Positions 12,318 through 50,877 of a DNA stretch of 64,000 bases are shown here, one piece after another; position 1 is the stretch's first letter, and every line of letters starts with the position of its first letter. The DNA lies in the sequence record NC_023693.1. One strand, given 5' to 3'. A program made the position numbers and the translations under genes. The DNA comes from Escherichia phage phi92. Under the pieces are notes generated by a model. The model ran no database searches. It was not told where the DNA came from and saw only the letters and a program-made list of their open reading frames with translations.

Positions 12318-13130
12318 TTATTTAGTCAAATGATCTTCTATCATTTTTATGAAAGCAGGATTGCTAAAAGCATCTGCGGCCTTTTCTCGATAAACAAAGA
12401 CTCCTCTATCTTCGTAAAGAAGAGTTTCTTCGTAATTAATTCCTGGGTTAACAACAATCATTTTTGTACCCATATTAAGTGCAGGGAATAATTCCCAATT
12501 AAAATTGATAACTTGGTTTGAACATCCTACTACAACAACCAAATCTTGCATGGTCAAAGTATCAAACAAGTGAGCCATATCTGCATACAAAGGTGCAGCC
12601 TCACCAAAAAATACAACATTAGGCTTCACCCAGTTGTAATCATCTATGTTTATACTGTTGTAACCAATATCTACCAGTGTTTTGTAATCCCCAGGATGCA
12701 TACGGTAAACTACTTCAGGAAGATATCCGTGCACGTGGATAACAGAATCCCTGTCTACACCTGCTCGCTCTAGTAGATCATCAACGTTTGTTGTCAAGTT
12801 TACTACTTGGTTAGGATATTCCTTAAACCACTTTGCTATTTGAATATGTGCAGCATTAGGTTGTACATCTTTAAGCTCAACACGTCTTTTGTTATAAAAT
12901 TCGTGTGTTTTGGCATACAAATCCATACCGTTTTCATCTACACCACCAACCACTGGAAGATCTGGTGATGTTCTCACACGATAACCTGCTTGGAAAGCTC
13001 CAATATCGCAGATCTCTTCTAAATCCCATTCTTCCCATAGGGCACGACCACTATCTGTGTCTGTTCGGAATGTTCGAATCCCACTATCTGCACTTAAACC
13101 AGCTCCACTAACAAAAATTACTCTTCGCAT
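12318..13130 (-). CDS. Sir2-family (sirtuin-like) NAD-dependent protein
   Basis: GAGLSADSGIRTFR NAD-binding motif, NAAH...TTNVDDL...HVHG catalytic-His block, VVFFGE, VVVGCS, VVNPG; no CxxC zinc ribbon seen; GAGGA SD. Confidence 0.75.
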   Translation of the reverse strand: MRRVIFVSGAGLSADSGIRTFRTDTDSGRALWEEWDLEEICDIGAFQAGYRVRTSPDLPVVGGVDENGMDLYAKTHEFYNKRRVELKDVQPNAAHIQIAKWFKEYPNQVVNLTTNVDDLLERAGVDRDSVIHVHGYLPEVVYRMHPGDYKTLVDIGYNSINIDDYNWVKPNVVFFGEAAPLYADMAHLFDTLTMQDLVVVVGCSNQVINFNWELFPALNMGTKMIVVNPGINYEETLLYEDRGVFVYREKAADAFSNPAFIKMIEDHLTK

Positions 13131-13687
13131 TCAATATCCTCTTCGTAATCATCATCCCAAGAAGATGCGTCGTAACGCTCTTCCTCTTCGAAATCCCAGT
13201 TAATTTCTACCCCAAAATCTAAAAACAATTTAACAATGTTTTCTGTAGAGTAGTATTTATCATAAGCATTAGCTAGTTCCCAATACTTATCACTCAATTT
13301 TTTATAAGTAGGATCATTATAGTCATAATCTACTTTATAACCATAGTCATACATCTCTTGTTCAGCTTTAAGCATAGCTTCTGGTGTAAGAAGATTAGGG
13401 AACGGACGATTTCTTTCTTTTAACTTAGAAGCGATCCAGTTTGCAACATTCGCCACTTCACCATCTCGATTATCACCTAAACAACTTGCATAATCTCCAT
13501 CTTCGTAAGTGCCTAAATCCCCACTTACTTCATGTACAATAGATGAATACGATCCACACGTTTCACAATCTGAAAAAGTGTCTACTGTTGTAATATCAAT
13601 AGATAAAACTGGTAAAGCCATAGCTTCTTTCACACAAGCCTCCTCATATAATAACATGTCATCAAAACCCATATATCCTCCAGACAA
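13118..13687 (-). CDS. hypothetical acidic protein
   Basis: 189 aa, very acidic C-terminus. Confidence 0.55.
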   Translation of the reverse strand: MSGGYMGFDDMLLYEEACVKEAMALPVLSIDITTVDTFSDCETCGSYSSIVHEVSGDLGTYEDGDYASCLGDNRDGEVANVANWIASKLKERNRPFPNLLTPEAMLKAEQEMYDYGYKVDYDYNDPTYKKLSDKYWELANAYDKYYSTENIVKLFLDFGVEINWDFEEEERYDASSWDDDYEEDIECEE

Positions 13688-13712
13688 ATAAAGCCCCTGC
13701 TTGGGGGCTTTG
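13686..13712 (-). terminator. rho-independent terminator
   Basis: AGCCCCCAAGCAGGGGCT hairpin then TTATTTG on minus strand. Confidence 0.4.
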
Positions 13713-13727
13713 GTTAAGTTTTACGGA

Positions 13728-14339
13728 TTATACCAGACTTTTAAGGTACTTGTCAAGGGCTTCTTGATCACCTTGACAAACATAGCAACGGAAGTCTTGA
13801 GCAGAAGGTTCTTTGTCCTCGTCCCAATCCCAATAGACAGTACCTTTATAGCGTGAGCCTGGGAACTCGAAGTATGCCACATGAGTAATATGGTGTGGGC
13901 CACCCCAAAACTCTGTAAAAGTAAATTGAGGATACGCTGCTTTAACTGTATTTTCAAACCAAGTTTTACGATCTAATGCTTCGTTTATAAAATAAGCATG
14001 GCGTTCCATTTCATCCCAATCTTTCCAAACGCATTTTTCATCCAGAGAGAAAACAAAATTTTCACTGTTAAACTCGTCTGTATCTGATTCCAAAATATCA
14101 TAGTCATGTGCACTAGGTATCCACCATCCAGCTTCTAATAGTGCTTTTGCAGGTACAAAACCTTTTTCAGCGTATTGGTCAAATTCTTTTACTCTACGTA
14201 CAGTGCAGTATTCATCTTCACCACCAATGTCCAATAGACAAGCGCCTCTGCGTCTTGCTGCAAGACCATGTGTATCAAAAACTACAACGCTACCTTCACC
14301 ATCTTCACGATCTACTTGATATGCAACTTTTTGAGTCAT
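13728..14339 (-). CDS. hypothetical protein
   Basis: 203 aa ORF. Confidence 0.55.
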   Translation of the reverse strand: MTQKVAYQVDREDGEGSVVVFDTHGLAARRRGACLLDIGGEDEYCTVRRVKEFDQYAEKGFVPAKALLEAGWWIPSAHDYDILESDTDEFNSENFVFSLDEKCVWKDWDEMERHAYFINEALDRKTWFENTVKAAYPQFTFTEFWGGPHHITHVAYFEFPGSRYKGTVYWDWDEDKEPSAQDFRCYVCQGDQEALDKYLKSLV

Positions 14340-14462
14340 ATTACCCCCAATGTATATGGGAAATTACCCAAAAGATAAATTCCCAAAAACACCAACCAAG
14401 AAAAGTTAATGGAATTATAAAAGCTATCAGAACAGTTTTCCAGCCTTTCCACAATGTTTCCA

Positions 14463-15452
14463 TTATTCCCCCATAGATTTAAGAATATGTGCAATGACAG
14501 GTATAGTCCAACCGTTGCCTAACATCTTATATGCTTGTGTGTTACTACTCACTTTAAAGTAATCGTCTGGAACACCTTGTAAGCGGCAACACTCTTTAAC
14601 CGTTAACTTTCTATAATGTACGCCTTCACTCAATTTTTCAAAAGCATCTAGATATCTTCCAGGTGGAATGTAGGCTAATAGTACGTCTTTAGGCACAGTC
14701 GTGAGGCAACGAGTTTTTTCACTGTTCTGAACTTCCAAACAATGTACCAAACGATCAGTTTTAGATGTACTACGTTTGCCATTTTCATTAATTCTACGCC
14801 CATATATTGCTGCTGGATAAAAAACCAGTTGTCTGCGACTCTTTTCAAAATACTGTTCTATATTACCACCTTTGGCATAATTTGCATCTATGCAATAAGC
14901 CTTATCTCTGTCTACAATACTATCATCTTCAATGATATCTTGCAACACTTCATTGGTAATATCCCAGGGTTTTATTTCCCAGTTGCACCAGTATAAACGT
15001 TGTCTATTCTGTGCCGTGAAATCTGCGGAGTTAATGAATACGGGATCAACACCTAAGTAACTTGTGATCACGTTTTCCCACTCCACTTTCATCTTAACGT
15101 TTTCAAGCATGAACTTAACATTAGGGTTAAACTTTTTAATATGTTCAAGAATCTCAACATATTCGAAGAATAGCTTAGATCGCGGATCTTGAAAGTTCAA
15201 ACCTTTACCAGAAGAAGAGAAGCCTTGACACGGACTACCACCTAACAAAAGATCAATTTCTCCCCACGGAATATCCCATTCTCTCCATTTTGTAACATCA
15301 CCTAACTGAATAATATCTGGAAAATTTGCTTGGCTTTCAGCTATGGCGAATTTGTCTAATTCTGAAGCATAATATGTATCTACTTCAATACCTGCACTTT
15401 TTAGCGCAAGCATTCCTCCTGACATACCATCAAAAAGACTTAAAACTTTCAT
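14463..15452 (-). CDS. DNA (cytosine-5)-methyltransferase
   Basis: motif I LSLFDGMSGG, motif IV GSPCQGFS, motif VI ENV, motif VIII QNRQR. Confidence 0.85.
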   Translation of the reverse strand: MKVLSLFDGMSGGMLALKSAGIEVDTYYASELDKFAIAESQANFPDIIQLGDVTKWREWDIPWGEIDLLLGGSPCQGFSSSGKGLNFQDPRSKLFFEYVEILEHIKKFNPNVKFMLENVKMKVEWENVITSYLGVDPVFINSADFTAQNRQRLYWCNWEIKPWDITNEVLQDIIEDDSIVDRDKAYCIDANYAKGGNIEQYFEKSRRQLVFYPAAIYGRRINENGKRSTSKTDRLVHCLEVQNSEKTRCLTTVPKDVLLAYIPPGRYLDAFEKLSEGVHYRKLTVKECCRLQGVPDDYFKVSSNTQAYKMLGNGWTIPVIAHILKSMGE

Positions 15453-15865
15453 TATTGCTTCTTCTCCTTAACACTAGCTGGTAATTCTGCCTTGAGGCAG
15501 AAGTTTAAACGGTAAGCCTCATTTTCATTTAAAAGTACAGATTCACACGATAACCAGAACAAGAGATCCTCAATACCAGGGCTGTTAAGCCAACAGTGCA
15601 GAAGAGAATGTTGTTCTATATCAATGTAATTTAGTAACAAGGCTTGTAAGGCGTAACTAGTTCCTGTCGTTTTTGCTTTTTCAAGGATGATATTGTGTTT
15701 ACTAACAACTTTCTTCCTAAGACCAAACCATTTATTAACAACAACAGTCTCCTCTTGTAGTTGTTTTCTTATTTTCTCACATTCTTTAACTACAATCTGC
15801 ATCTTATCCACTGCCGATTGAAGTTGTTCTTTTGTTGGGTTTACAAAATAATCACTATAATACAT
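15452..15865 (-). CDS. hypothetical protein
   Basis: 137 aa, start overlaps methyltransferase stop. Confidence 0.5.
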   Translation of the reverse strand: MYYSDYFVNPTKEQLQSAVDKMQIVVKECEKIRKQLQEETVVVNKWFGLRKKVVSKHNIILEKAKTTGTSYALQALLLNYIDIEQHSLLHCWLNSPGIEDLLFWLSCESVLLNENEAYRLNFCLKAELPASVKEKKQ

Positions 15866-15920
15866 GCTAATCTCCTCTTCTGTTTTTCTGTAGTTTATTC
15901 GAAAAAACTGGTGTTGTCAA

Positions 15921-15944
15921 CAAAAAACCCGCCGAAGCGGGTTT
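15921..15944 (-). terminator. rho-independent terminator
   Basis: ACCCGC-CGAA-GCGGGT hairpin then TTTTTTG on minus strand. Confidence 0.5.
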
Positions 15945-15947
15945 ATA

Positions 15948-16205
15948 TTATTCTACAGGAACTTCTTCACCAAGAGAGACTTCTAAACGGAATGCTTTAC
16001 TTTCAATACACTCACTACCTTTTAGAAAATCAAATTGCACTATAGACTGACTTAATAGAATAGATAGAATCACATCGCAATCTTCACTAGGGGCTAGATG
16101 TTTGTATTCTTCCTTCAAAGTAACATCATAAAAACATAAATCCCCTACTCCTAGTTCATCCCATCCTTCCCACGCATCTACAAAGTTAAACTCTAAACCT
16201 TTCAT
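15948..16205 (-). CDS. hypothetical acidic protein
   Basis: 85 aa. Confidence 0.5.
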   Translation of the reverse strand: MKGLEFNFVDAWEGWDELGVGDLCFYDVTLKEEYKHLAPSEDCDVILSILLSQSIVQFDFLKGSECIESKAFRLEVSLGEEVPVE

Positions 16206-16726
16206 ACAACCTCCTCGTAGTTGTTATTGTGTTTTACTGTCTCAACATACAATAAAGATTCCATCTGTAATACATTACCAGAAACAATAAACCCATAAGC
16301 CATTTCAGATGTGTCTATATCATATGCCCCGTCTTCCGGTTTAGCAAAGTGTAAAACTATTTCATCTGGGTTTTCTTCATCCCATAGTTTAGAAATTTTC
16401 CGAACCAGAATGTTAGCTAAAATAGTTGACATTCGGGATAAAGCTGTATCCTCATATCTTTTAAAACCTAGCCAATAGAGGTTAAGAATTTCTACTTCTT
16501 CTTGTGTTAAGTTTTTGTCTAAAGTAATCAGATCTGTAGAGCACGGCGTTTTTGTTGAACCTACTGTTACAAAACCTGGAGTATTATGAAAAACAATCTT
16601 AACTTTATCACGTATAAAGTTTAAACCTTGTGCCTCAACTATATATTGTATTGTAGGTACAATATCGTTTGTTACATCAATAAAACTATCTTTAATGACG
16701 CTTATATTATTTCTGGACAAGACCAT
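16202..16726 (-). CDS. hypothetical protein
   Basis: 174 aa. Confidence 0.55.
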   Translation of the reverse strand: MVLSRNNISVIKDSFIDVTNDIVPTIQYIVEAQGLNFIRDKVKIVFHNTPGFVTVGSTKTPCSTDLITLDKNLTQEEVEILNLYWLGFKRYEDTALSRMSTILANILVRKISKLWDEENPDEIVLHFAKPEDGAYDIDTSEMAYGFIVSGNVLQMESLLYVETVKHNNNYEEVV

Positions 16727-17285
16727 TCTCCTCTAAAATAGGCTTAATAAATTCGAAAATTTGTTTTTTACTTTTACCTCGAATATTAAAACAAGGAACA
16801 TTAAACTTTTTAGCCAACATCCAAGCTGTTCTTGTACCACCTAAAGGATCTCCATTTTTATCTGTATTTGCACAAGCTAAAAGAAAACAAGATGGTTTTG
16901 GATTCTCAAGATCTCTTCCAAGAACTTGGTGGATATTTCTTTGATGTAATTTTTTAGCACCTTGAGATAATCTGTCCCAAGCTGGATGCAATTCTTTTGC
17001 ATATTGCAAGGTTAGAGCATAGTTTACACTATCTGGTCTGTCAAGAACAATAACCTCTCCCTCTATTTCATTACCTTTAAACGAGAGCCAAGGGATGTAT
17101 ATTTCTTTCTTTGTATTGTTCCCACTATCATATACACCGCATTCAAATGCGGAATCTGCACCTTCTGCTTTACCAGATCGCAAAATGAACCATGTAGATA
17201 GCCATTTTGCAACAGATACCATAGTATCCCATTCTTCGTCTGTAATATCTCTGCTACCAACACCTGTGTAGAATAAATCGCTCAT
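16707..17285 (-). CDS. DprA/Smf-like (SLOG-type Rossmann) nucleotide-binding protein
   Basis: start set at internal ATG 17285 (AAGGAG SD); GVGSRDIT...SGKAEGADSAFECGV resembles DprA/SLOG glycine-rich signature. Confidence 0.4.
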   Translation of the reverse strand: MSDLFYTGVGSRDITDEEWDTMVSVAKWLSTWFILRSGKAEGADSAFECGVYDSGNNTKKEIYIPWLSFKGNEIEGEVIVLDRPDSVNYALTLQYAKELHPAWDRLSQGAKKLHQRNIHQVLGRDLENPKPSCFLLACANTDKNGDPLGGTRTAWMLAKKFNVPCFNIRGKSKKQIFEFIKPILEENGLVQK

Positions 17286-17295
17286 GGTTTTCTCC

Positions 17296-17616
17296 TTAAC
17301 AAGTAATATTGGGAGTAACAATTGGATTAACAATTGGAGTGATAGGGTACGTAAACCAAGGGCTTCCAATTTCCCAAGGACTATAAGGTCTACGAGGATC
17401 AAATGGAGGAGTTACTTCAGGCTTTTTCCAAATCTCCGCTAGTTGTTTCTTCCATTTATCCCTTGCTGTCTCATTATCTTCATCCAACTGTTCATCATTA
17501 TCTTTTATTTCTGGTTTTGGAAATAAAAGCTCTTTGACTAACTCAACATCTTCCGTCTCAATAGTAGTTTCTTTCGTAAGTTCTCCTACTGTTTCTTTAA
17601 TTGTGATTTTATACAT
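17296..17616 (-). CDS. hypothetical protein
   Basis: 106 aa. Confidence 0.5.
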   Translation of the reverse strand: MYKITIKETVGELTKETTIETEDVELVKELLFPKPEIKDNDEQLDEDNETARDKWKKQLAEIWKKPEVTPPFDPRRPYSPWEIGSPWFTYPITPIVNPIVTPNITC

Positions 17617-18362
17617 TAATCCTCCTCTAAAGTAGAATAAAATTGTAACGTATTTGAATCATCAAAATATGCAAAGGTTAAATTACCATTGAAGCAAGAT
17701 CCTGTGTCCATATATACCCTATTACTGCTAATCACAGGTTTAGGAACATAAGAATGCCCGTGAAATACATAATCTACTCCTGAAACCCTAGGAAGAAGAA
17801 TCCCTTCAAGTGCGCAATCTATCATATCACGATCCCACATTAAAGATTCTGTGAATCGAGATACTTGCTCTTTATTCATATTCAAACAAAATGGCAAAAC
17901 TTCTGTCACTGGTAAATGTTCCAAAACTGAAGGATACCCACCGTGAATAAAGCCTAGTTTCATATCACGATAATTGACAACAAGTACAACAGGTAAATCT
18001 TCTAGCATCAAAGCAAGAGCAGTTGCACCCTCTTCTCCACACTCGTCTAGAACTGTATGGCCTCCGTTCTGAAACCAACATTCGTAATATCGTCTATCAC
18101 CTTCTAGCAACCCTTTAATCATCATATCTTCATGATTTCCACGAATACCATAACGATTTAGCTTTCTGGTGAATTCAACAACACAACGAAAATTCTGCTT
18201 GCCGCGATCTGTAAGATCTCCTAAAGATACAACAACATCTTGATCTCGGATACCTAAAGTATTAACACCTTTCTGGTACAAATCAAAGCAACCATGTAAA
18301 TCACCAATAATAAACAGGTCTTGATCATCTTTTACACTAATTTCTTGATATACTAGCATCAA
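17616..18362 (-). CDS. Ser/Thr protein phosphatase (calcineurin-like metallophosphoesterase)
   Basis: GDLHG, GDLTDRG, GNHE metallophosphatase motifs. Confidence 0.75.
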   Translation of the reverse strand: MMLVYQEISVKDDQDLFIIGDLHGCFDLYQKGVNTLGIRDQDVVVSLGDLTDRGKQNFRCVVEFTRKLNRYGIRGNHEDMMIKGLLEGDRRYYECWFQNGGHTVLDECGEEGATALALMLEDLPVVLVVNYRDMKLGFIHGGYPSVLEHLPVTEVLPFCLNMNKEQVSRFTESLMWDRDMIDCALEGILLPRVSGVDYVFHGHSYVPKPVISSNRVYMDTGSCFNGNLTFAYFDDSNTLQFYSTLEED

Positions 18363-18685
18363 CTCTCCTCAAAATCCATAAGTATAAAGATATTAACTTT
18401 ACCTTCTATATTATGTTCTACAACAAGATCTGCAAATTCTTTGTAGGCTTTTTCTTCTATTTGTTCAATGTGAGACGCTACATCTTTGTATATAGCGTCA
18501 CCATCTACTTTAACAAGGAGGAATAGAGATCTTACTTCAATCTCTTTATTTTTACGGGGTAGAAAATCGACGGCTTCTTGTATACGCCAGCCGAGATACC
18601 CTGGAGTCCTTTGAATATCCTCCAAATGACTTTCTAAGATTTCCCTTCCTTTGTCTATTAAAGCCTGTTCTGTCGTTATTTTCAT
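18359..18685 (-). CDS. hypothetical protein
   Basis: 108 aa. Confidence 0.5.
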   Translation of the reverse strand: MKITTEQALIDKGREILESHLEDIQRTPGYLGWRIQEAVDFLPRKNKEIEVRSLFLLVKVDGDAIYKDVASHIEQIEEKAYKEFADLVVEHNIEGKVNIFILMDFEES

Positions 18686-18695
18686 CCCCTTCTCC

Positions 18696-19268
18696 TTAAT
18701 GTGTTAATGAAACTGCGTAACTAAACACAGGTTCAGATATTACATCGGCTACAGTAATAAAAACGTCTTCGTCTTGAGTTGTTTCTACACGACATACAGT
18801 TACACCATTCACCACGAATTCAACGCAATGTGGAATATCTTCACAAACGAAGGTAGTGTAAGTAACACCCAAAGCATCATACAAAGATTTAACAGTGTTT
18901 GCAAGTGCCGCAGTTTCTTCTTTTTCTGAGACAATGAATGCTGTAACAACAAGATTGTTTGCATAGTTTAGACTGTCCTCTATAGCCAATGATTTACAAG
19001 GTAGTAATGCAAAATATTTACCTGGTTTAATCAGACCTGCTTCCCATTGATTCAAAATTGCTTGGGATGGTTTAGTAATATAAAACAGATTTTCACTTGG
19101 GTTATCAATATTACTTCTGGCGATACAACGTGAAGGATTATTAATATCAAACACATGATCAAAATCTACACAAACTGGTAAACTGAAAGGTGTGAATTTT
19201 TTACCTAATAATCCTACTGCTGACAATATGTTTGCTGTGCTTATCTTCCCGTTAAAAGCTAAACGCAT
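18696..19268 (-). CDS. hypothetical protein
   Basis: 190 aa. Confidence 0.55.
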   Translation of the reverse strand: MRLAFNGKISTANILSAVGLLGKKFTPFSLPVCVDFDHVFDINNPSRCIARSNIDNPSENLFYITKPSQAILNQWEAGLIKPGKYFALLPCKSLAIEDSLNYANNLVVTAFIVSEKEETAALANTVKSLYDALGVTYTTFVCEDIPHCVEFVVNGVTVCRVETTQDEDVFITVADVISEPVFSYAVSLTH

Positions 19269-19279
19269 ATTTAACTCCT

Positions 19280-19483
19280 TTAACTAGCAACCGTAACTTC
19301 CGAACTTTCTTCTTTCGTACTGTCTACGATATGCCTGGTGGCAATATACGAGACTTGCCAGTTACCATCTGGTGTAGTCTCAATAAGTACCCTATCTACT
19401 TCGAGAAAATGCAAAAATTCAACCATCGCTCGCTTCGATAGGAATTGTTTTTTAACAGTCTCCTCAAAAGATTGAACTGCCAT
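19280..19483 (-). CDS. hypothetical protein
   Basis: 67 aa. Confidence 0.45.
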   Translation of the reverse strand: MAVQSFEETVKKQFLSKRAMVEFLHFLEVDRVLIETTPDGNWQVSYIATRHIVDSTKEESSEVTVAS

Positions 19484-19492
19484 GTTTCCTCC

Positions 19493-20155
19493 TTATTTAA
19501 TATTCAATTTTGCACAAAGACGTTGTACCGCTTTGGCATCGAACAAACTCCCACGAATAGTTCTCTTTCCTGATTCATTCAGATGTTTTGCAATCGTCAT
19601 ATATGGCGTTTTACAAGCTCTGTATGCAACTAAAGAATCTTTTAAAGAAAGCGCAAACTCTTTTGAGCGTTTTGCTTCTTCCGTTTTCGTATAATCTGTT
19701 CTTTTGTATTTAGGGTTTGCTGCACCAAGAAGCGTTCCCTTCGCTTTTGCTACTTTAAGGCTCTTCTTAACACGATCAGATATTGCACGAGCCTCTTCTT
19801 CTGCCAGAACTGCTAAAATATTTATTATCATATTTTCAGCGGAGGGCATAGTTGCTATTCGTACATTAATCATCTCTAACAAGGTTGCAACAGAAGCTGT
19901 GTTACGTCCAAGACGGTCAACCTTAGCAACAACAAGTGTAGCACCTGTTTCTTTGCAAAGATTAACAGCTTTTACAAGCTCTCTACGTTGCTTCCAATCG
20001 CCTTTACCCGAATAAAACTCTGCAAAGCTACCTACAATAGTATAATTTTCTTGTGAATCCAGGAAGCGTTGAATATCTGCTTCCTGTGACTCTATACCAT
20101 ACTGGTTGCCTTGTTGTTTCTTCTTAGAAAGTCGATGATATAGTACAAACTTCAT
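19493..20155 (-). CDS. serine recombinase (resolvase/invertase family)
   Basis: N-terminal YHRLS...Q, LVVAKVDRLGRN, ILAVLAEEEARAISDRVK...AKG blocks typical of resolvase catalytic domain; basic C-terminus. Confidence 0.6.
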   Translation of the reverse strand: MKFVLYHRLSKKKQQGNQYGIESQEADIQRFLDSQENYTIVGSFAEFYSGKGDWKQRRELVKAVNLCKETGATLVVAKVDRLGRNTASVATLLEMINVRIATMPSAENMIINILAVLAEEEARAISDRVKKSLKVAKAKGTLLGAANPKYKRTDYTKTEEAKRSKEFALSLKDSLVAYRACKTPYMTIAKHLNESGKRTIRGSLFDAKAVQRLCAKLNIK

Positions 20156-20212
20156 AATACCCTCCTGTTCTGTTACAGGAAGTATGCACTACCTTAATGT
20201 TAAAGTCAACAG

Positions 20213-20416
20213 TTAAGTAGTGGTAATATCATCCTCTTGAATACTAGGGTCAACTTCTGCAAAGATAGCCTCTACAGGAATTTCTTCACCTGCTATTCTA
20301 GAAAGAAGCACGGAACCAATAGCTTTTGCGTGTTCTTCGGATTCCGCATAAACATTAGTTCCTGTGTCTTTTTTCTTAGTTTCGTTAAAATATACCAGAT
20401 AGTAATTGTATGCCAT
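20213..20416 (-). CDS. hypothetical protein
   Basis: 67 aa. Confidence 0.4.
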   Translation of the reverse strand: MAYNYYLVYFNETKKKDTGTNVYAESEEHAKAIGSVLLSRIAGEEIPVEAIFAEVDPSIQEDDITTT

Positions 20417-20667
20417 TATTCATCCCAATCGCCGTTACGAGCACTTTCAAGAACCTTGACAACTTCTGCATACTCTACAGCTAAACCAGCACATACTTCA
20501 GCTTGTTTTGCAATTGCTTGTTTAAAGAACATAGCGATTGCAACACTCTGTGTTGTGTGAATGTTATCTGCTTTAGTTGATACATGAAGATCAAAATCTT
20601 CTTCATCAAAGGTGAGTTCCATAGTAACAATAAATTTCTCGGTCATAAAAATGCTCCTCTTAAACAA
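20416..20667 (-). CDS. hypothetical protein
   Basis: 83 aa. Confidence 0.45.
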   Translation of the reverse strand: MFKRSIFMTEKFIVTMELTFDEEDFDLHVSTKADNIHTTQSVAIAMFFKQAIAKQAEVCAGLAVEYAEVVKVLESARNGDWDE

Positions 20668-21169
20668 AATAGAAAGGTTGAGTTAAACCCAGCCTGTTTT
20701 TTGGGTCGTAGACGTACCAAGCATATGCTGTCTTATCAGTACCACCTGCAACAAAAGATGGTCGTTCAGAAAGAACAATCAAATTTGTTGGTGGATTCTG
20801 TTTATGGAATTCCCTTCGTTTAATAGACTCTAGGAACCCAAGACGCAACAAGTATATGCAAACGTCTGCTTCTTTTAAGCTCTTTTGCAAGAACTCAAGT
20901 GCAAGTCTGAATGGTGGATTTGTGATTATAATATCCGGCTTAGTATGCCATTCGTGGTTAAAATAATCCTTCCCTTCTTCTAACTCACAATATTCTGATC
21001 CTTCTGGAAAATGTTGATAAATTGCAGCAGCAGCACCTTTACACGGTTCTGCAAAAATAAAACCTTCTTCTTTAAGGTTATTAAAATCTATTACACTAAA
21101 TAATGCATTTATACATTTTTGTGGAGTAGGATAGTAATCAGTTGGTGGACGATCATACTTATTTGCCAC
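20660..21169 (-). CDS. DNA N6-adenine methyltransferase (phage Dam-like)
   Basis: DYYPTP and IITNPPF (motif IV) in a 169 aa protein. Confidence 0.65.
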   Translation of the reverse strand: MANKYDRPPTDYYPTPQKCINALFSVIDFNNLKEEGFIFAEPCKGAAAAIYQHFPEGSEYCELEEGKDYFNHEWHTKPDIIITNPPFRLALEFLQKSLKEADVCIYLLRLGFLESIKRREFHKQNPPTNLIVLSERPSFVAGGTDKTAYAWYVYDPKNRLGLTQPFYFV

Positions 21170-21587
21170 TACTTAAAATCTCCTCTTTTGTGATTTCAGG
21201 GTCTTCTTCAAAAACCATAATATCTCTTAAGAACGTTAATTCTTCCATAGATACTGGTATTGTATCTTCTTCTGTTTTTCGTTTACATAAATCGTCAAGA
21301 AAGTTTTTAAAGTTTTCTGACAAATCGTAAAATTTCAACAGTTGATAATCACAGGAGGAGATCCTATCCAGTTCTAACATTCTTTCTAAGATATTTTCTG
21401 TGTTGCCATACAGCACACGAACTTCTCCGAAAGGGTTGACTGAATATTGTGAAGTTCTGAACCATCCCTTTTTAGATACAGTGTAACGCTGTTCTGCTAA
21501 ACTTTCAATAAAATTTTTAGCTCTTTTACAGTTTTGTTCTAAAGAGTAGTAGGCTTTTTCTACAAAGGTTACAGGTACTGGTAACAT
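21159..21587 (-). CDS. hypothetical protein
   Basis: 142 aa. Confidence 0.5.
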   Translation of the reverse strand: MLPVPVTFVEKAYYSLEQNCKRAKNFIESLAEQRYTVSKKGWFRTSQYSVNPFGEVRVLYGNTENILERMLELDRISSCDYQLLKFYDLSENFKNFLDDLCKRKTEEDTIPVSMEELTFLRDIMVFEEDPEITKEEILSSGK

Positions 21588-21627
21588 ATCTCCTCCTAAT
21601 AACCCCCTTGCGGGGGTTTATACTAGA

Positions 21628-22281
21628 TTAATTATCAGAGGACACTTTATCAAGTTTTTCAGAGACTGTCAATACTTTTTCTTGTGATTCTTTCATTTCT
21701 GCTAAAATACTTTCAGCTTCATCACTATCAGGATCACCAGTCAACAGCATACTAATTAGTTGCTCCTTGCTGAAGTTCAGAATATCTTCCGCTGTTAACT
21801 CCAGTTGTTCTTCGATCTCTTCGATAAAAGTTTCACCGCCTGAAAAAGCATCTCGCAGTTTTGCAACTTCCATCGCTTCTTCTGGGGTTGCCCCAGCGTC
21901 TAAAGCTGCTAAAGCAAAATCTGCCCCACTACCAACAGCATAATAATCTTCAGTTAAAGGATATGCTCGCGTTGGATTGTTACCCTCGTGCATATAAATT
22001 TTACCATCTGGGTGAACAACTAATGCCACAAACTCTTCATCTTCTTTATCAGGATTTGACTGGATCACCAAACCTGGGATTGTCTCTTGTGCTGCTTGGC
22101 ATTGTAAGTTTTGTTCGAACCAAGAAAAGAAAGTCAGGATAGAAGACAGACGTCCTGCACCACCAACAAGGTAATCCCCAATTTTACGCACTTTCTTGAA
22201 ATTTAAAGTGTCTACTCGATTACCTACTGTTACTTTACCGTCAGACAGAATTTTGTTACGTGTTGCAATAATTGTTGTCAT
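21628..22281 (-). CDS. HslV/proteasome-like Ntn-hydrolase peptidase
   Basis: N-terminal MTTIIATRN (Thr nucleophile after Met), KKVRKIGDYLVGGAG and YAVGSGADFALAA align to HslV blocks. Confidence 0.55.
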   Translation of the reverse strand: MTTIIATRNKILSDGKVTVGNRVDTLNFKKVRKIGDYLVGGAGRLSSILTFFSWFEQNLQCQAAQETIPGLVIQSNPDKEDEEFVALVVHPDGKIYMHEGNNPTRAYPLTEDYYAVGSGADFALAALDAGATPEEAMEVAKLRDAFSGGETFIEEIEEQLELTAEDILNFSKEQLISMLLTGDPDSDEAESILAEMKESQEKVLTVSEKLDKVSSDN

Positions 22282-24260: not shown

Positions 24261-24527
24261 TTACTCCGCAATCTGAGCCATGAATTCACGTAGTTCAGAA
24301 AAACCTCCTACGTGGGTTAGCTGTTCACCATCTTCCACAAAAATCTGAGGAAATGTGCGTGGTAGAACACCTGTTTTCTCTAAAACCAGATTCTGAATCT
24401 GATCTAAAGAATAGTCTTCATCTAAGGTAAGGTATTTAAAATCCTGTTCACGCTGTTCTAGTAGAATCTTAGCGTTAGTGCAGAAAGGACAATTTGGTTT
24501 ACCGTAGATAATAAAATTCATTTTCAC
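24261..24527 (-). CDS. glutaredoxin (NrdH/Grx-like)
   Basis: CPFC active site near N-terminus, 88 aa. Confidence 0.75.
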   Translation of the reverse strand: MKMNFIIYGKPNCPFCTNAKILLEQREQDFKYLTLDEDYSLDQIQNLVLEKTGVLPRTFPQIFVEDGEQLTHVGGFSELREFMAQIAE

Positions 24528-25354
24528 TCCTTGTTTAAAAGTATAGTTAAAGTTCTTACAATACCGCTATCAACACTTCGCGGATTTAAAGTAGGATCTG
24601 TTTTTAAATAAGATGTTGCTGGTCTGACTGCTTTGGAATTATAGGTTGAAGCAGATACAGGATTAACTGTAACAGACAAATCTATAACAAGAAATATCTT
24701 TCGTGCAAAATCATACCAAGAAATATAATCTGCACCTGCATAGTGTACAATTTTACTATTTACACCATCTTTTACAAGTTTAAAAATTGTTTCTGCAAGA
24801 TCAGGTGCATAAGTAGGACATGATAAATGATCACATACTACATTAAATTCTTTTTGACCACCGTTGTAGCGTTCCAACATAGTTTTCAAAAAGTTATGTC
24901 CAAATTCACTATAAACAGAAGCTGTTCTGATAATAAGTGCTGTAGGACAAACTGCTTGTACTAAAGTTTCACCTAATTGTTTACTGTAACCGTAGGTGTT
25001 CAAGGGGTTTGTTTTACTCTCTTCTGTGCCAGCAACATGTCCATCAAAAACATAGTCTGTTGAAATATGTACAAACTGTATCAGTAAATCATTACATGCT
25101 TTGGCAATGTTTGTTGCACCGTATGCATTAACATTTATACAGGTGTTAACATCTTCTTCAGCTTTATCTACTGCCGTGTAAGCCGCACAATTCACAACAA
25201 CATCAGGCACATGCTGTACAAGACTATTCATAACATCTTTAAAGTTGGTAATGTCTATATCACTTGCTTCAATCAAAACAACATCTTCTGGTGCAACTTT
25301 TGCCAAAGATTGTCCTAATTGACCTTTTGAACCAAAGACTAAAAATTTTGTCAA
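24524..25354 (-). CDS. rmlD: dTDP-4-dehydrorhamnose reductase
   Basis: N-terminal Rossmann FGSKGQLGQ and RmlD-like length; last gene of rml operon order. Confidence 0.75.
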   Translation of the reverse strand: MTKFLVFGSKGQLGQSLAKVAPEDVVLIEASDIDITNFKDVMNSLVQHVPDVVVNCAAYTAVDKAEEDVNTCINVNAYGATNIAKACNDLLIQFVHISTDYVFDGHVAGTEESKTNPLNTYGYSKQLGETLVQAVCPTALIIRTASVYSEFGHNFLKTMLERYNGGQKEFNVVCDHLSCPTYAPDLAETIFKLVKDGVNSKIVHYAGADYISWYDFARKIFLVIDLSVTVNPVSASTYNSKAVRPATSYLKTDPTLNPRSVDSGIVRTLTILLNKE

Positions 25355-25905
25355 AATATGATCTCCTTTAGTGTTTTGGCTTCCTGATCTTTTTGTGACA
25401 AGATAGGTTTAAAATTAATATCATTAAAGATTAAATCAAAACCCCAATCTATATTGATATCTGGATCATTCCACGCAAGACTACACTCTGAAGTCGGATC
25501 GTAATATTCTGTACATTTGTATTCAAAATCAGCAATATCACTAATCACAACAAAGCCATGAGCGAAACCAGGAGGAATCCAAAATTGTGTTTTATTCTTT
25601 TCAGATAAGAGAACACCTACCCATTCTCCAAATGTTGGACTACCAACCCTAATATCTACAGCAACATCATAAACTTCACCACGAACACAGCGTACCAACT
25701 TCCCTTGTGGGTTTTTCTTTTGAAAATGAAGCCCACGTAGAACTCCTCGGATAGAACGTGAATGGTTATCTTGGACAAAGTTTTGTTTACCTATGTATTG
25801 ATCATATAAAGCCTGATTAAAACTTTCTAAGAAAAAGCCACGTTCATCTCCGTAAACGTCAGGTTGAATGATCAACAAATCTTCGATTTTTGTTGCTTGA
25901 ATCAT
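25351..25905 (-). CDS. rmlC: dTDP-4-dehydrorhamnose 3,5-epimerase
   Basis: RGLHFQ cupin signature, 184 aa. Confidence 0.8.
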   Translation of the reverse strand: MIQATKIEDLLIIQPDVYGDERGFFLESFNQALYDQYIGKQNFVQDNHSRSIRGVLRGLHFQKKNPQGKLVRCVRGEVYDVAVDIRVGSPTFGEWVGVLLSEKNKTQFWIPPGFAHGFVVISDIADFEYKCTEYYDPTSECSLAWNDPDINIDWGFDLIFNDINFKPILSQKDQEAKTLKEIIF

Positions 25906-25917
25906 TTAATTCCCCTT

Positions 25918-26787
25918 TTATTTTAATTTAAGTAAATACTTACCGTAGTCTGTTTTACTTAAAACCTCTCCAGAACTTTTTACAGAGTCTAAAGTAATCC
26001 ATTCATTTTTAAAAGCAATCTCTTCCAGGCATGCAACCTTCATACCTTGTTGCTTCTCTATTGCATGAACAAATTGAGATGCTTCCATAAGACTTTCATG
26101 TGTTCCTGTATCCAGCCAAGTGAAACCTCTTCCTAGTTTACAGACACGTAAAGTCTTTTCTTTCCAGTACATCTCATTTATATCCGTAATCTCTAACTCC
26201 CCTCTAGCAGAAGGTTTAACGCTCTTAGCTTTCTGTATAACAGAATTATCGTAAAAGTACAAGCCTGTGATTGCGTAGTTGCTTTTTGGTGTTTTTGGTT
26301 TTTCTTCAATACTCACCACTGTACCTTCAGAATCAAACTCAACAACACCAAATCTTTCAGGATCATTTACGTGATACCCAAAGATATTAGCTCCACCATT
26401 CTTTTCAATATGTTCTTTAGCAGAATCTAAAATGCTACCAAAACTCTGACCAAAGAATAAATTATCACCTAGCACAAGTGCTACAGAATCTTCACCAATA
26501 AAGTTCTCACCAATAATAAACGCTTCTGCTAAACCTTTTGGGCTATCCTGTATTGCATACTGTAGGGAAATACCAAAAGAAGAACCATCACCTAGAAGAT
26601 TTACAAAATTAATTTGATCTTCTGGTGTTGTAATTATTAGTATTTCCCTAATTCCAGAAAGCATTAGGACAGAGAGTGGATAATAAATCATAGGTTTATC
26701 GTAAATTGGTAATAGTTGTTTACTAACCCCTTTAGTAACTGGGTAAAGCCTTGTTCCACTACCACCTGCTAAGATAATACCTTTCAT
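25918..26787 (-). CDS. rmlA: glucose-1-phosphate thymidylyltransferase
   Basis: [18 protein letters not shown] nucleotidyltransferase signature, 289 aa. Confidence 0.85.
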
Positions 26788-26795
26788 ACTCCTCC

Positions 26796-27785
26796 TTAAA
26801 CTTTATTTTCCCACCACTCTTTGTTATCTACATACCAATCAATGGTTGAATAAAGTTTTTCTTCAAATGTGCCTTTAGCTTTCCACCCTAATTCCTTTTC
26901 AATCTTATAAGGATTCACTTCATATCTTAAATCATGCCCAGGCCTATCTGTAACCATCTCAATGAGGCTACAAGCATCTGTTTCAGATGGATATACCGCA
27001 TCCATATAATCACAAATCATATAGATTACATCAATATTAGTTCTAGGGTTTCTGCTCCCAATATTATATGTCTCTCCAGATTTGCCTTTAGTTACTACTA
27101 GGTGTAATGCCTCTGCGTGATCGTCAACGTATAACCAGTCTCTTACTTGAAGACCATTACCATAAACAGGGATTGGTTTATGCATTAAGATATTTGTTAT
27201 CGTTTTAGGTATTAGTTTTTCTGGATGATGATATGCTCCAAAATTATTTGAACAATTTGTTATAACTGTCGGAATACCATAAGTACGATGCCACGCTCTT
27301 ACCAAATGATCGCTTGCAGCTTTAGATGCAGCATATGGACTACTTGGTTTATAAGGATTCTGTTCTGTAAACGGATAATCTCCTTCTTCCAGATCACCAT
27401 ACACTTCATCTGTTGAAATATGATGGAACATTTTAAGATTTGATTTATCTCCCATTAAACGAACAGCTTCTAGAAGATTAAATGTCCCAACAATATTTGA
27501 ATTTATAAAAACACTCGGTGATGCTATTGAATTATCTACGTGACTCTCTGCTGCAAGATGCATTATATAATCTGGATTAACATCTGCCACAATCTTAGCA
27601 GTTAACTGCGCATTTGTCAAGTCAACACGACAAAACTTTACATTAGGTGTTTCTGATAAATTCCTAGGGTCTGAAGCGTAACCCCATTTATCTATAACGT
27701 AAATATCATTCTTAGTATTTTTAGCTAGGAAACGAACTACCGCACTTCCAATAAAGCCTAAACCACCTGTTACTAAGTATTTCAT
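26796..27785 (-). CDS. rmlB: dTDP-glucose 4,6-dehydratase
   Basis: [12 protein letters not shown]-binding motif, SDR-type YxxxK region, 329 aa. Confidence 0.85.
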
Positions 27786-48178: not shown

Positions 48179-49072
48179 ATGAAAGTTAGTATTCTACATG
48201 GTGTTGGCTGTTATGTTACTGATGTAGACGTTAAAGTCTTTACATTCTCTGGTGGAGAACAACATGTTCAACTAGACACGAATCTATCAGGTTTCAATCA
48301 TGCTACAGACAGAATCTTACTCTCTTTAGAAGTAAGATCTGCTAAAGACTTGATGACTTTGGTTATGACTAAGAATGCATTGGACAATATGCTATATCAT
48401 AAACCATATTGTGTTGATTTGCTCATGTTGTATGTGCCATATGCACGACAAGACAGAGTGTGTGAACCTGGGGAAGCATTCGGAGTTAAAGCATTTGCTT
48501 CTATAATTAATTCATTAAATTTCTCACGTGTTATCGTTGCTGATCCACATAGTGATGTTACTCCAGCGGTGTTTGACAGACTCTGTGTAATACCTCAAGA
48601 AGAAATTGCTTACGAAACTTTAAAGTGGAAGTTACGTATGGAGAATTTTGCTCTTGTTAGTCCTGATGGTGGTGCTCTTAAGAAAATATTTAAATTATCT
48701 AAGAAAATGTCTTTAGATGTGTTCTGTGCAGAGAAGGTTAGAGATACTGCAACAGGTGCTATTGTTCGTACAGACATTTCTGTACAGGATTTCAATAAGC
48801 GTAACCTGATGATCGTAGATGATATCTGTGACGGCGGTAGAACTTTTATTGAATTGGCTAAAGTGCTACGTGCTCGTAACGCAGGTAAGATTGAGTTATA
48901 TGTTACACACGGTATCTTTTCTAAAGGTCTTAAAGAGTTAAGTGAGCACTTTGACTGCATTCATTCTCTTAATGTGTGGGAAGATAACATCCAAGAAGAT
49001 TCCGGTGTTCTTGTTAAGAATCAGTCAGATTTGCAACAACAAATTGTATCTCCATACGTGTGGAATTTTTAA
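48179..49072 (+). CDS. ribose-phosphate pyrophosphokinase (PRPP synthetase) family protein; candidate ADP-ribose pyrophosphate synthetase (Adps-like)
   Basis: VSPDGGALKK and PRPP-binding-type IVDDICDGGRT motifs; AAGGAG SD. Confidence 0.8.
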   Translation: MKVSILHGVGCYVTDVDVKVFTFSGGEQHVQLDTNLSGFNHATDRILLSLEVRSAKDLMTLVMTKNALDNMLYHKPYCVDLLMLYVPYARQDRVCEPGEAFGVKAFASIINSLNFSRVIVADPHSDVTPAVFDRLCVIPQEEIAYETLKWKLRMENFALVSPDGGALKKIFKLSKKMSLDVFCAEKVRDTATGAIVRTDISVQDFNKRNLMIVDDICDGGRTFIELAKVLRARNAGKIELYVTHGIFSKGLKELSEHFDCIHSLNVWEDNIQEDSGVLVKNQSDLQQQIVSPYVWNF

Positions 49073-49143: not shown

Positions 49144-50877
49144 ATGAATATTTTTGCACCTTTTGCTACTGATTGGTATAAACCTGGTCACAAGCAGATG
49201 TACAACCAAAATACAAAACTCATTTTCTCTAATTTAACTCCTCGTAATGATAAAAACTTTGCACACTATGCAGATCGTGAAGCACGTGGTGTGATTGTTT
49301 TAGGTATTCGTCGAGCAGTCACTGATGCTCTTGTAACTATGTGGGATAGCTTCTTTAAAATGTCTCGTAGTGCAGCAGTAAATAAATTTTATCGTATGTC
49401 TAAAAATGCATTAGGTGCTTCTGCTCCTTCTGCTGAATGTTGGGAAGAATTGCACGATTTAGGTTATCTTCCGCTAGAAGTTCGATCTCTGCCAGAAGGT
49501 GTTTTGTGTCCTATTGGTGTTCCTGTGTTTACTGTGCATAATACTTTAGAAAAATTCTTTTGGTTAACTAACTATGTGGAAACACTATTGTCAGATGAAA
49601 CTTGGAAGACAATGACTAATGCCACAGCAGCTTTTCAGTATAAGCGTATCGCTATGGCGTATGCGATGGCAACGTGTGATAACATTGATCACGTTAATTT
49701 CCAGTGTCATGACTTTAGCCTACGTGGTTTAAGCAATATCGAAGATGGTTATAAGAGTGGTATCGCTCATTTGGCATCTTTCACAGGAACAGATAACATT
49801 CTGGCTATTGAGACTGTGCATGATTATTATGGTATTGATTATGATCAGTTTGTTGCAGGTTCTATTCCGGCAACAGAACATTCAGTAGCAACGACTAACA
49901 TTGGAGCTATTGTTGAAGATCTGAAGAAACATTTCCCACATCTTAAAGATGATGTTGATGGGCTTCGTTATGTAGCAGAGAAAGAGTTTCTTCGCCGCTA
50001 TATTGAAGAAATTGTTCCAGAAGGTTTTTGTTCATATGTAGCAGATTCTTATGATTACTGGGCTGTCTTGACTCGCATTCTGGTAGAATTGAAAGAGTCC
50101 ATTATGTCACGAAATGGTCGTCTTGTTATTCGTCCAGATTCAGGAGATCCGGTTAAAGTTGTTGCAGGATACAATGTTGAATCTTTTGCTAACTATGAAG
50201 ACCTTTTAAATAATGGTATTGCTACAGCCACTGAAGTAGTTCATTTGGCTGATGTTAATAAGTATTACAATGTTCTTCAGGATTGCAGTGTTGCTGATTG
50301 TATTGATGAAACTTATGAGATTCCTTATTGTGAAGCAGTAGGTTCTATTCAAATCCTTTGGGAAGTGTTTGGTGGTACTATCAACCGAAAAGGCTACAAG
50401 GTTCTTGATCAGCACATCGGTATGATTTATGGTGATTCTATTACTGTTGAACGAGAATACGAGATCTTACGCCGACTGAAGAAGAAAGGTTTTGCAGCTT
50501 CCAATATTGTATTTGGTGTTGGTAGTTATACTTATCAGTTCAATACACGAGATACTTTTGGTTTTGCTGTTAAAGCAACAGGTAGTATCATCGGTGAACA
50601 CGAAATTTTGGTAAGTAAGGAGCCTAAAACTGATCCTGGTAAACGCTCTGCAAAAGGTTTTATTAAGGTTGTTAAGGATACAAATGGTAAACTTTCTCTT
50701 GTGGATAATCTTTCTTTTAAAGATATCCAAGATGAAGACAATGAGTTAAAAGTTATCTTCAGGGATGGTACGGTTATTACACCACAAGTAGAAGGACGTG
50801 ATGAAACATTTACTGATATCCGCAACCGTGTTGATGTAGAGGTTCTTCGTACTATGGGAACCATCCAGGTTGACTAA
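49144..50877 (+). CDS. nicotinamide phosphoribosyltransferase (NAMPT) family protein; candidate nicotinamide ADP-ribose transferase (Namat-like)
   Basis: N-terminal TDWYKPGH (DSYKxxH-like), RPDSGD, FGVGSYTYQFNTRDTFGFAVKAT blocks of NAMPT family; AAGGAGA SD. Confidence 0.8.
   Translation: MNIFAPFATDWYKPGHKQMYNQNTKLIFSNLTPRNDKNFAHYADREARGVIVLGIRRAVTDALVTMWDSFFKMSRSAAVNKFYRMSKNALGASAPSAECWEELHDLGYLPLEVRSLPEGVLCPIGVPVFTVHNTLEKFFWLTNYVETLLSDETWKTMTNATAAFQYKRIAMAYAMATCDNIDHVNFQCHDFSLRGLSNIEDGYKSGIAHLASFTGTDNILAIETVHDYYGIDYDQFVAGSIPATEHSVATTNIGAIVEDLKKHFPHLKDDVDGLRYVAEKEFLRRYIEEIVPEGFCSYVADSYDYWAVLTRILVELKESIMSRNGRLVIRPDSGDPVKVVAGYNVESFANYEDLLNNGIATATEVVHLADVNKYYNVLQDCSVADCIDETYEIPYCEAVGSIQILWEVFGGTINRKGYKVLDQHIGMIYGDSITVEREYEILRRLKKKGFAASNIVFGVGSYTYQFNTRDTFGFAVKATGSIIGEHEILVSKEPKTDPGKRSAKGFIKVVKDTNGKLSLVDNLSFKDIQDEDNELKVIFRDGTVITPQVEGRDETFTDIRNRVDVEVLRTMGTIQVD

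Follow-up and report, generated by a model that had tools for sequence, protein, structure and literature searches.

Two methyltransferase genes in the phi92 window

A 64,000-nucleotide stretch of DNA from Escherichia phage phi92 (NC_023693.1), referred to here as the window, carries two methyltransferase genes (Table 1). One encodes a C5-cytosine DNA methyltransferase (the C5 enzyme) and the other a protein of 169 amino acids (aa) with an N6-adenine-type catalytic core (the 169-aa enzyme). A preliminary description of the sequence had proposed two methyltransferases of different chemistry at these positions and had read them as orphan anti-restriction enzymes. Both open reading frames (ORFs) lie exactly where it placed them, on the minus strand, and the difference in chemistry is borne out by family matches and motifs for the C5 enzyme and by catalytic core motifs and the predicted fold for the N6-adenine type. 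The methyltransferase signals far exceed anything that chance would produce. The two genes are separated by ~5.2 kb of sequence with 12 unrelated ORFs, and the stretch 14463-21169 is therefore not one functional unit.

At least 20 Escherichia phage genomes of the genus Justusliebigvirus (the phi92-like phages, Stephanstirmvirinae) match the region 14000-22000 from end to end at 98.4-99.1% identity; Nernie, EmilieFrey (BASEL Bas61), Paula and vB_Eco_PATM are among them. Both genes are ordinary and already annotated in dozens of these near-identical genomes. The EmilieFrey GenBank record labels the two ORFs ‘Dcm-like C5 cytosine methyltransferase’ and ‘putative N6 adenine methyltransferase’, and the Nernie record names both ‘DNA methyltransferase’. 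Methyltransferases in the phi92-like group are also mentioned by Olsen et al. and in the paper on the Justusliebigvirus BME3, which arrives at a solitary-methyltransferase reading for that phage and speaks of four coding sequences (CDSs) in three classes.

Table 1. The two methyltransferase genes of the phi92 window and the features that flank them (dN/dS, ratio of non-synonymous to synonymous substitution rates; nt, nucleotides)
Feature	Coordinates	Strand	Basis or remark
C5-cytosine DNA methyltransferase, 329 aa	14463..15452	-	ORF; Pfam, NCBIfam and PDB matches; motifs; dN/dS
Compact amino-methyltransferase, gamma-class-like, probably N6-adenine, 169 aa	20660..21169	-	Motifs, PHROG, AlphaFold model
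137-aa ORF, directly upstream of the C5 gene	15452..15865	-	phrog_16551 (function-unknown PHROG)
40-aa ORF, next gene downstream of the C5 enzyme, start overlapping	14341..14463	-	Annotated CDS in EmilieFrey and Nernie
203-aa ORF, final gene of the C5 unit	13728..14339	-	Best-placed candidate for a partner nuclease; evidence against
142-aa ORF, upstream of the 169-aa gene, 11-nt overlap	21159..21587	-	phrog_15078 (function-unknown PHROG)
83-aa ORF, downstream of the 169-aa gene, 8-nt overlap	20416..20667	-	phrog_14731 (function-unknown PHROG)
Terminator-like G+C-rich hairpin then T-run, closing the upstream unit	15925..15944	-	Scan and sequence
Sigma-70-like promoter, TTGACA, 17 nt, TAAACT	15892..15920	-	Scan and sequence; 27 nt upstream of the 137-aa ORF, directly after the hairpin
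Terminator-like hairpin AAAGCCCCCAAGCAGGGGCTTT then T-rich sequence, end of the C5 unit	13690..13711	-	Scan and sequence

A conventional C5-cytosine methyltransferase

The C5 gene begins with ATG, and an AAGGAG Shine-Dalgarno sequence lies 11 nt upstream. All ten-motif landmarks can be located in its product, in canonical order: motif I (FDGMSG, residues 7-12), motif IV (PCQ, 74-76), motif VI (ENV, 117-119), motif VIII (QNRQR, 148-152), motif IX (RKLTVKECCRLQGVP, 281-295) and motif X (GNG, 312-314), the first four of which had been picked out in the preliminary description. Residues 1-328 match Pfam PF00145 over model positions 1-323/324 (E 3.1e-44, 152.2 bits against a cut-off of 22), a full-length family match, and the protein scores 142.7 bits with NCBIfam TIGR00675, above the cut-off of 100.65. 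By its motifs and family matches the 329-residue protein is a conventional C5-cytosine DNA methyltransferase, presumably active in vivo.

Among PDB sequences the closest to the protein are the catalytic domains of DNMT3A/B, M.HhaI and M.HaeIII (E ~1e-23). With these PF00145 enzymes it shares motifs I, IV, VI, VIII, IX and X as well as the full-length family match, but its recognition region aligns to none of the solved enzymes, and no partner nuclease was found for it. The PDB alignments skip the stretch between motifs VIII and IX, where the variable target-recognition region lies (approximately residues 153-280, ~128 residues). In the mechanism expected of such an enzyme, Cys75 (PCQ) would attack C6 of the flipped-out cytosine, Glu117 (ENV) would protonate N3, and S-adenosylmethionine would donate the methyl group; a short target would be specified by the variable stretch that separates motifs VIII and IX.

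The term ‘Dcm-type’, which had been attached to this gene, holds as a generic C5 label and fails as a subfamily assignment. E. coli Dcm (CCWGG; NCBIfam NF007772) belongs to the same superfamily and has the same chemistry, but where NF007772 has a cut-off of 710 bits the C5 enzyme reaches 28.8, and does so only within its C-terminal 46 residues; it is not an orthologue.

A compact methyltransferase with an N6-adenine-type core

The gene for the 169-aa enzyme has a GTG start and a GAGGAG Shine-Dalgarno sequence. The protein carries motif X (Y13-P-T-P, residues 13-16), motif I (E41-P-C-K-G, 41-45), motif II (E62), motif III (D68-Y69) and motif IV (N84-P-P-F, 84-87), and a motif VIII-like R136-P-S-F follows; YPTP and NPPF had also been noted in the preliminary description. 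Across 41 diverse homologues T15, E41, P42, N84, P85, P86, R136, P137, F139, D145 and D155 are invariant. The sole sequence-model match is to phrog_799 (E 1.7e-56); there is none in Pfam or NCBIfam (E up to 0.01) or among PDB sequences. The family consists of stand-alone proteins of ~160-220 aa, with 237 matches in a word-indexed search and 13,843 cluster representatives (50% identity clusters) at E up to 0.001, and no Pfam or NCBIfam model describes it. Some members carry a Cys-rich (zinc-ribbon) insertion between RPSF and GTD.

An AlphaFold model of the protein (pLDDT 90.2, pTM 0.87) shows that the whole chain forms a Rossmann core, with no separate target-recognition domain. Aligned by profile, the family weakly matches type I HsdM and PacII over motifs X, I and IV (E 0.012-0.021; 0.012 for StySJI HsdM in the PDB), with EPCKG and NPPF placed opposite the DPACGTG and NPPF of HsdM/PacII, and distant family members give sub-threshold matches to the Dam, Eco57I, EcoRI-methylase and N6_Mtase models. 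Compared with gamma-class N6-adenine enzymes (PF02384/PF07669/TaqI-like), the protein has both the motif order X, I, IV and the structural match; its sequence stays below the curated Pfam and NCBIfam thresholds, no recognition domain or specificity subunit was found, and no partner gene is conserved beside it. Relative to M.TaqI, MmeI, M.BseCI and type I HsdM, it is thus a bare catalytic core. Together the motifs and the model make an N6-adenine-type catalytic core well supported.

The description of this protein as ‘Dam-like’, in contrast, proved wrong as a family label. Phage T1-type Dam (PF05869/TIGR01712) is likewise phage-borne and of similar size (~165-180 aa), has an N-terminal xTP followed by (N/D)PP(Y/F), and is often found beside a C5 enzyme, as on a Photobacterium plasmid, an arrangement like that in the window. 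However, the 169-aa enzyme matches neither the T1-type models nor E. coli/T4-type Dam, and when it was compared by profile with a bona fide TIGR01712 member, hhalign returned a probability of 2%.

The model matches M.TaqI, MmeI, HsdM and METTL5, an enzyme that makes N6-methyladenine (m6A) in rRNA, equally well. One reading is accordingly that the protein is not a DNA methyltransferase and instead modifies RNA (m6A in rRNA or tRNA, like METTL5 and PH1948) or protein glutamine (like HemK/Mtq2), its current label having been inherited. We regard this as quite unlikely. In the alignments, motif I (EPCKG) falls opposite DPACGTG in gamma-class enzymes that act on DNA, as opposed to the DxGxGxG typical of RNA enzymes, and DNA enzymes align structurally over 150-160 residues of the model compared with ~140 for RNA enzymes. 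Moreover, the family is overwhelmingly borne by phages or mobile elements, and the zinc-ribbon insertion of some members falls in the putative recognition loop. Sequence identity to METTL5 and PH1948, the 18S rRNA m6A enzymes, is just 17-18%, and whereas METTL5 works on rRNA with a TRMT112 partner (PDB title), no such partner or link to RNA is evident for the 169-aa enzyme.

The distribution of the family, its motif I and the longer alignment to DNA enzymes make DNA the likely substrate, and the enzyme would most probably produce N6-methyladenine in it. Target reading may fall to the loop between β6 and β7 (residues ~133-148), which is the site of the insertion in some homologues and the lowest-confidence part of the AlphaFold model.

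Selection and distribution

Both genes are under purifying selection. For the 169-aa enzyme, comparison of the window with phAPEC8 (Phapecoctavirus) gives dN 0.123 and dS 1.84 (dN/dS 0.067). The C5 gene of the window differs from that of EmilieFrey by 12 synonymous and 5 non-synonymous changes and from that of Nernie by 9 and 1, respectively, and its dN/dS against close relatives is ~0.03-0.1. Intact copies with at least 95% identity occur in 53 phage records; the next matches, at no more than 52%, are those of Vibrio phages including ICP1, jumbo coliphages and Bacteroides phages (40-52%), a distribution consistent with the gene having been gained at the root of the genus. The 169-aa enzyme is found in 493 phage records, at ~86% identity in Phapecoctavirus and ~47% in Vequintavirinae.

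These data bear directly on the idea that both genes are inactive relics kept by hitch-hiking. No phenotype has been linked to either gene and the phages that carry them are restriction-sensitive, as a relic would have it, but the catalytic motifs are all intact, dN/dS lies well below 1, the genes are intact across dozens of isolates and both have good Shine-Dalgarno sequences. We give this idea almost no credence.

Gene neighbourhoods and orphan status

The C5 gene is part of a compact four-gene unit, in the order 137-aa ORF, methyltransferase, 40-aa ORF and 203-aa ORF, with terminator-like hairpins on both sides. The stop codon of the 137-aa ORF overlaps the ATG of the C5 gene by one base, and the two are therefore co-transcribed. 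Scanning returned 16 terminator-like sites where 6.2 are expected in shuffled sequences; promoter-like sites in the region are no commoner than in shuffles (44 against 41.8), and it is by its position that the site listed in Table 1 probably drives the four-gene unit. A further site, at 13727-13756 (minus strand), fits the sigma-70 consensus perfectly (TTGACA, 18 nt, TATAAT, plus a TG upstream of the latter); it lies within the last codons of the 203-aa ORF and immediately upstream of the hairpin at 13711-13690, an odd promoter-then-terminator order before the next gene.

The flanks of the C5 gene are kept in phAPEC8, where the counterpart of the 203-aa ORF (gp195) is 67% identical and that of the 137-aa ORF (gp193) 25% identical and in the same PHROG. 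Between these conserved flanks phAPEC8 has a different, 227-aa C5-like enzyme of phrog_757 (FDGSG, PPC, ENP) with no Pfam match. The methyltransferase has thus been swapped at a syntenic slot (window 13728-15865), and a phrog_16551 ORF of 131-137 aa accompanies both enzymes.

The two neighbours of the 169-aa gene also have relatives in phAPEC8, at 46% identity for the 142-aa ORF and, for the 83-aa ORF, at 38% to gp178. Between the two methyltransferase genes lies a serine recombinase or DNA invertase (19493-20155, minus strand; Pfam Resolvase, E 8.4e-22), which may be an inserted gene because the syntenic locus of phAPEC8 lacks a counterpart.

The preliminary description had recognised no restriction nuclease candidate beside either gene, and a check by hidden Markov model (HMM) scans of the neighbours, structure modelling and synteny bears this out. 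None of the nine neighbouring ORFs scanned against PHROGs, PADLOC and Pfam has a nuclease or defence HMM match. In particular, the 137-, 142- and 83-aa ORFs match nothing in Pfam or PADLOC, and the 40-aa ORF matches no PHROG. Structure modelling of neighbours covered the 203-aa ORF, the model of which shows no nuclease fold; the 137-, 142-, 83- and 40-aa ORFs were covered by the sequence scans. Homologues of the 169-aa enzyme in metagenomic contigs have phage-like surroundings of unrelated phage genes, with no nuclease. The 142-aa ORF was also considered as a specificity partner for the 169-aa enzyme and was rejected, being absent next to the homologues in other genera (Vequintavirus CarlMeissner and Aeromonas phage 4L372XY).

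Could the locus nevertheless hold a cryptic phage restriction-modification pair, with one of the small neighbours (137, 203, 142 or 83 aa) an unrecognised nuclease? Restriction nucleases diverge too fast for reliable HMM detection, and a member of the 137-aa ORF family immediately precedes the methyltransferase in every case, no matter which enzyme occupies the slot, while conserving only 25% identity, against 67% for the other flank. We nonetheless think such a pair very improbable: besides the lack of any nuclease or defence match among the neighbours scanned and of a nuclease fold in the 203-aa model, the 203-aa protein is kept beside an unrelated methyltransferase in phAPEC8, and the neighbours of the 169-aa enzyme are not conserved outside its subfamily. 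No known type II nuclease is as small as the products of the 137-, 142- and 83-aa ORFs. The reading of both genes as orphan, or solitary, methyltransferases is therefore supported.

Target motifs and palindrome avoidance

It had been held that the target specificities cannot be read from the sequence, and this is what we found: solved relatives, plasmid neighbours and site statistics each gave no prediction. The PDB alignments of the C5 enzyme cover the catalytic motifs and not the recognition region. A search of plasmids by tblastn for a homologue beside a named restriction nuclease gave two matches, the better of which, on a Photobacterium plasmid, comprises a C5 enzyme and a phage N6-adenine methyltransferase with no nuclease. 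As for site statistics, GCGC, GATC, CGCG, ACGT and TGCA are not avoided, and for GTAC and CCGG the avoidance is weaker than in a Phapecoctavirus, yet the hexamers AGTACT, GGTACC, AGCGCT and GGCGCC are absent. Because these missing hexamers contain such tetramers, no coherent target prediction emerges. A literature search returned no methylome and no restriction digests for phi92-like or rV5-like phages.

The statistics do reveal an extreme avoidance of palindromic hexamers, with AAGCTT, GGATCC, GGTACC, CAGCTG, CCATGG and AGTACT among the absent sites. In the window, 24 of the 64 palindromic hexamers are absent, and in a complete 148-kb genome of the genus (OZ035770.1) 22 of 64 are absent, for which ~391 sites would be expected from base composition; among non-palindromic hexamers, 34 of 4032 are absent in 122 kb. 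GGWCC occurs once against 48 expected, and the observed/expected ratio of GGCC is 0.4. The genome has kept GAATTC and GATATC, in line with the published sensitivity to EcoRI and EcoRV. The main passive defence of these phages against type II enzymes looks to be site avoidance and not methylation.

Restriction phenotype

Both enzymes would methylate replicating phage DNA, and the preliminary description had proposed an anti-restriction role for them. Published tests on the group comprise six restriction systems and one BREX system, and in these the anti-restriction role is not borne out. In the BASEL raw data, EmilieFrey, which is 98.8% identical to the window here, forms 2.7e7 plaque-forming units on the vector control and 3e6 on the EcoKI host (an efficiency of plating of ~0.1).

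Several observations weigh against broad protection. EmilieFrey forms no plaques on EcoRI, EcoRV and EcoP1I hosts, and JohannJBalmer behaves alike; in the words of the BASEL authors, the group is made up of phages that ‘lack any effective protection’ against restriction. Picton et al. list Pau and PATM among the five BREX-sensitive phages, a GCTAAT system cutting plating by ~7-8 logs. The sensitive carriers encode both genes plus a third methyltransferase (see below). Moreover, because the genome relies on site avoidance, it has less need for methylation. Orphan methyltransferases form a recognised class in phages (Murphy et al. 2013, as cited in PMC12210895). The two genes resemble them in being solitary, in a lytic phage genome and without a cognate nuclease, and differ in that the expected restriction resistance is not seen in this genus in any system tested.

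The same data limit what the enzymes can be doing. The window contains 15 GAATTC, 25 GATATC, 47 AGACC and 25 GCTAAT sites, and since these sites are present and the carriers are sensitive, no phage enzyme fully methylates the protective adenines in those motifs. Sensitivity to EcoRI, EcoRV, EcoP1I and BREX likewise means that the 169-aa enzyme does not carry out exhaustive, non-specific adenine methylation. In the same study by Picton et al., neither Pau nor PATM was sensitive to BrxU, an enzyme directed at modified cytosine. We considered this as evidence against 5-methylcytosine and set it aside, as sparse, site-specific 5-methylcytosine need not trigger BrxU.

At best, then, the protection would be narrow, limited to nucleases with sites that overlap the motifs of the two enzymes, and would not amount to general anti-restriction; protection against nucleases other than those tested is possible. 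We therefore favour a reading, to which we assign a probability of about 0.6, in which a lytic phi92-like myovirus carries two orphan methyltransferases, a C5 DNA enzyme and a minimal gamma-class-like core, that afford narrow protection at best.

An alternative is that both are active DNA methyltransferases serving the biology of the phage itself and not its defence against host restriction. They might self-mark phage DNA against the phage nucleases that degrade host DNA, time replication, packaging or transcription, or counter a non-classical defence. Phages with both genes show full sensitivity to BREX and to all the type II and type III systems tested, the genome is already without most G+C-containing hexamer palindromes, and the 169-aa enzyme is conserved far afield (Stephanstirmvirinae, Vequintavirinae and Seunavirus-like phages) under strong purifying selection, as a core function would be more than an arms-race gene. 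On the other side, no direct evidence points to regulation or self-marking, the C5 gene was swapped into a variable slot in one lineage, as is typical of defence or counter-defence cargo, and the sensitivity was established with only six restriction systems and one BREX system. On balance we find this alternative unlikely. Similarly doubtful is the proposal, confined to the 169-aa enzyme, that it is no conventional sequence-specific anti-restriction DNA methyltransferase and instead acts on RNA, like METTL5 and PH1948, its best structural matches, or has a conserved non-defensive role in phage DNA metabolism; if true, either role would explain why the carriers stay fully restriction-sensitive. 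Two orphan methyltransferases with at best narrow protective value remain our preferred interpretation.

Other methyltransferase-related genes and neighbours

The third genuine methyltransferase of the genus lies outside the window. In Nernie (PP925835.1) it occupies 137468-138199, near the DNA polymerase gene, and encodes a 243-aa protein that matches PF01555 (N6_N4_Mtase) with E 1.9e-30. A further ORF, of 163 aa (60180-60671, plus strand), is situated between the portal gene and a 371-aa ‘hypothetical protein’ ORF and is labelled ‘DNA methyltransferase’ in PHROG-based records (phrog_1530; Nernie CDS0027). Its Pfam match, however, is to Peptidase_S78_2 (XkdF prohead protease; E 2.6e-11), and it also matches head-maturation-protease PHROGs. 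The methyltransferase label is, on these matches, likely an annotation error that inflates counts for the genus, the gene probably being that of the prohead protease. The ‘four CDSs, three classes’ of the BME3 paper can be accounted for in this way, by three genuine methyltransferases and the mislabelled prohead protease.

A complete dTDP-rhamnose pathway, with RmlD, RmlC, RmlA and RmlB homologues that have strong Pfam matches, is encoded at 24524-27785 (minus strand) in the DNA-metabolism region. The pathway has been discussed in the literature as a possible route to DNA glycosylation, yet one that confers no restriction resistance.

Two minus-strand ORFs, 13118-13687 and 18696-19268, are named ‘histidyl tRNA synthetase’ or ‘putative aminoacyl-tRNA synthetase’ in some records. 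The names look unsupported; the latter ORF has no Pfam match even at E up to 1 and the former none at E up to 0.01. The window also encodes a Sir2-family protein (12318-13130, minus strand), a nicotinamide/nicotinate phosphoribosyltransferase (48179-49072, plus strand) and a PRPP-synthetase-like protein (49144-50877, plus strand). This NAD-related set could counter NAD-depleting host defences.

Implications

For the annotation of these phages, the analysis has two corrective consequences: the 169-aa enzyme is not Dam, and its role as a DNA methyltransferase is putative; and one of the ‘DNA methyltransferase’ labels in circulation for the genus is an error, attached to a gene that encodes, by its likely assignment, a prohead protease. 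More broadly, the presence of methyltransferase genes in a phage does not alone predict restriction resistance, since the phages considered here carry them and are among the most restriction-sensitive coliphages tested. Were the target motifs of the two enzymes mapped, they would help to predict which hosts these broad-host-range, therapy-candidate phages can escape.

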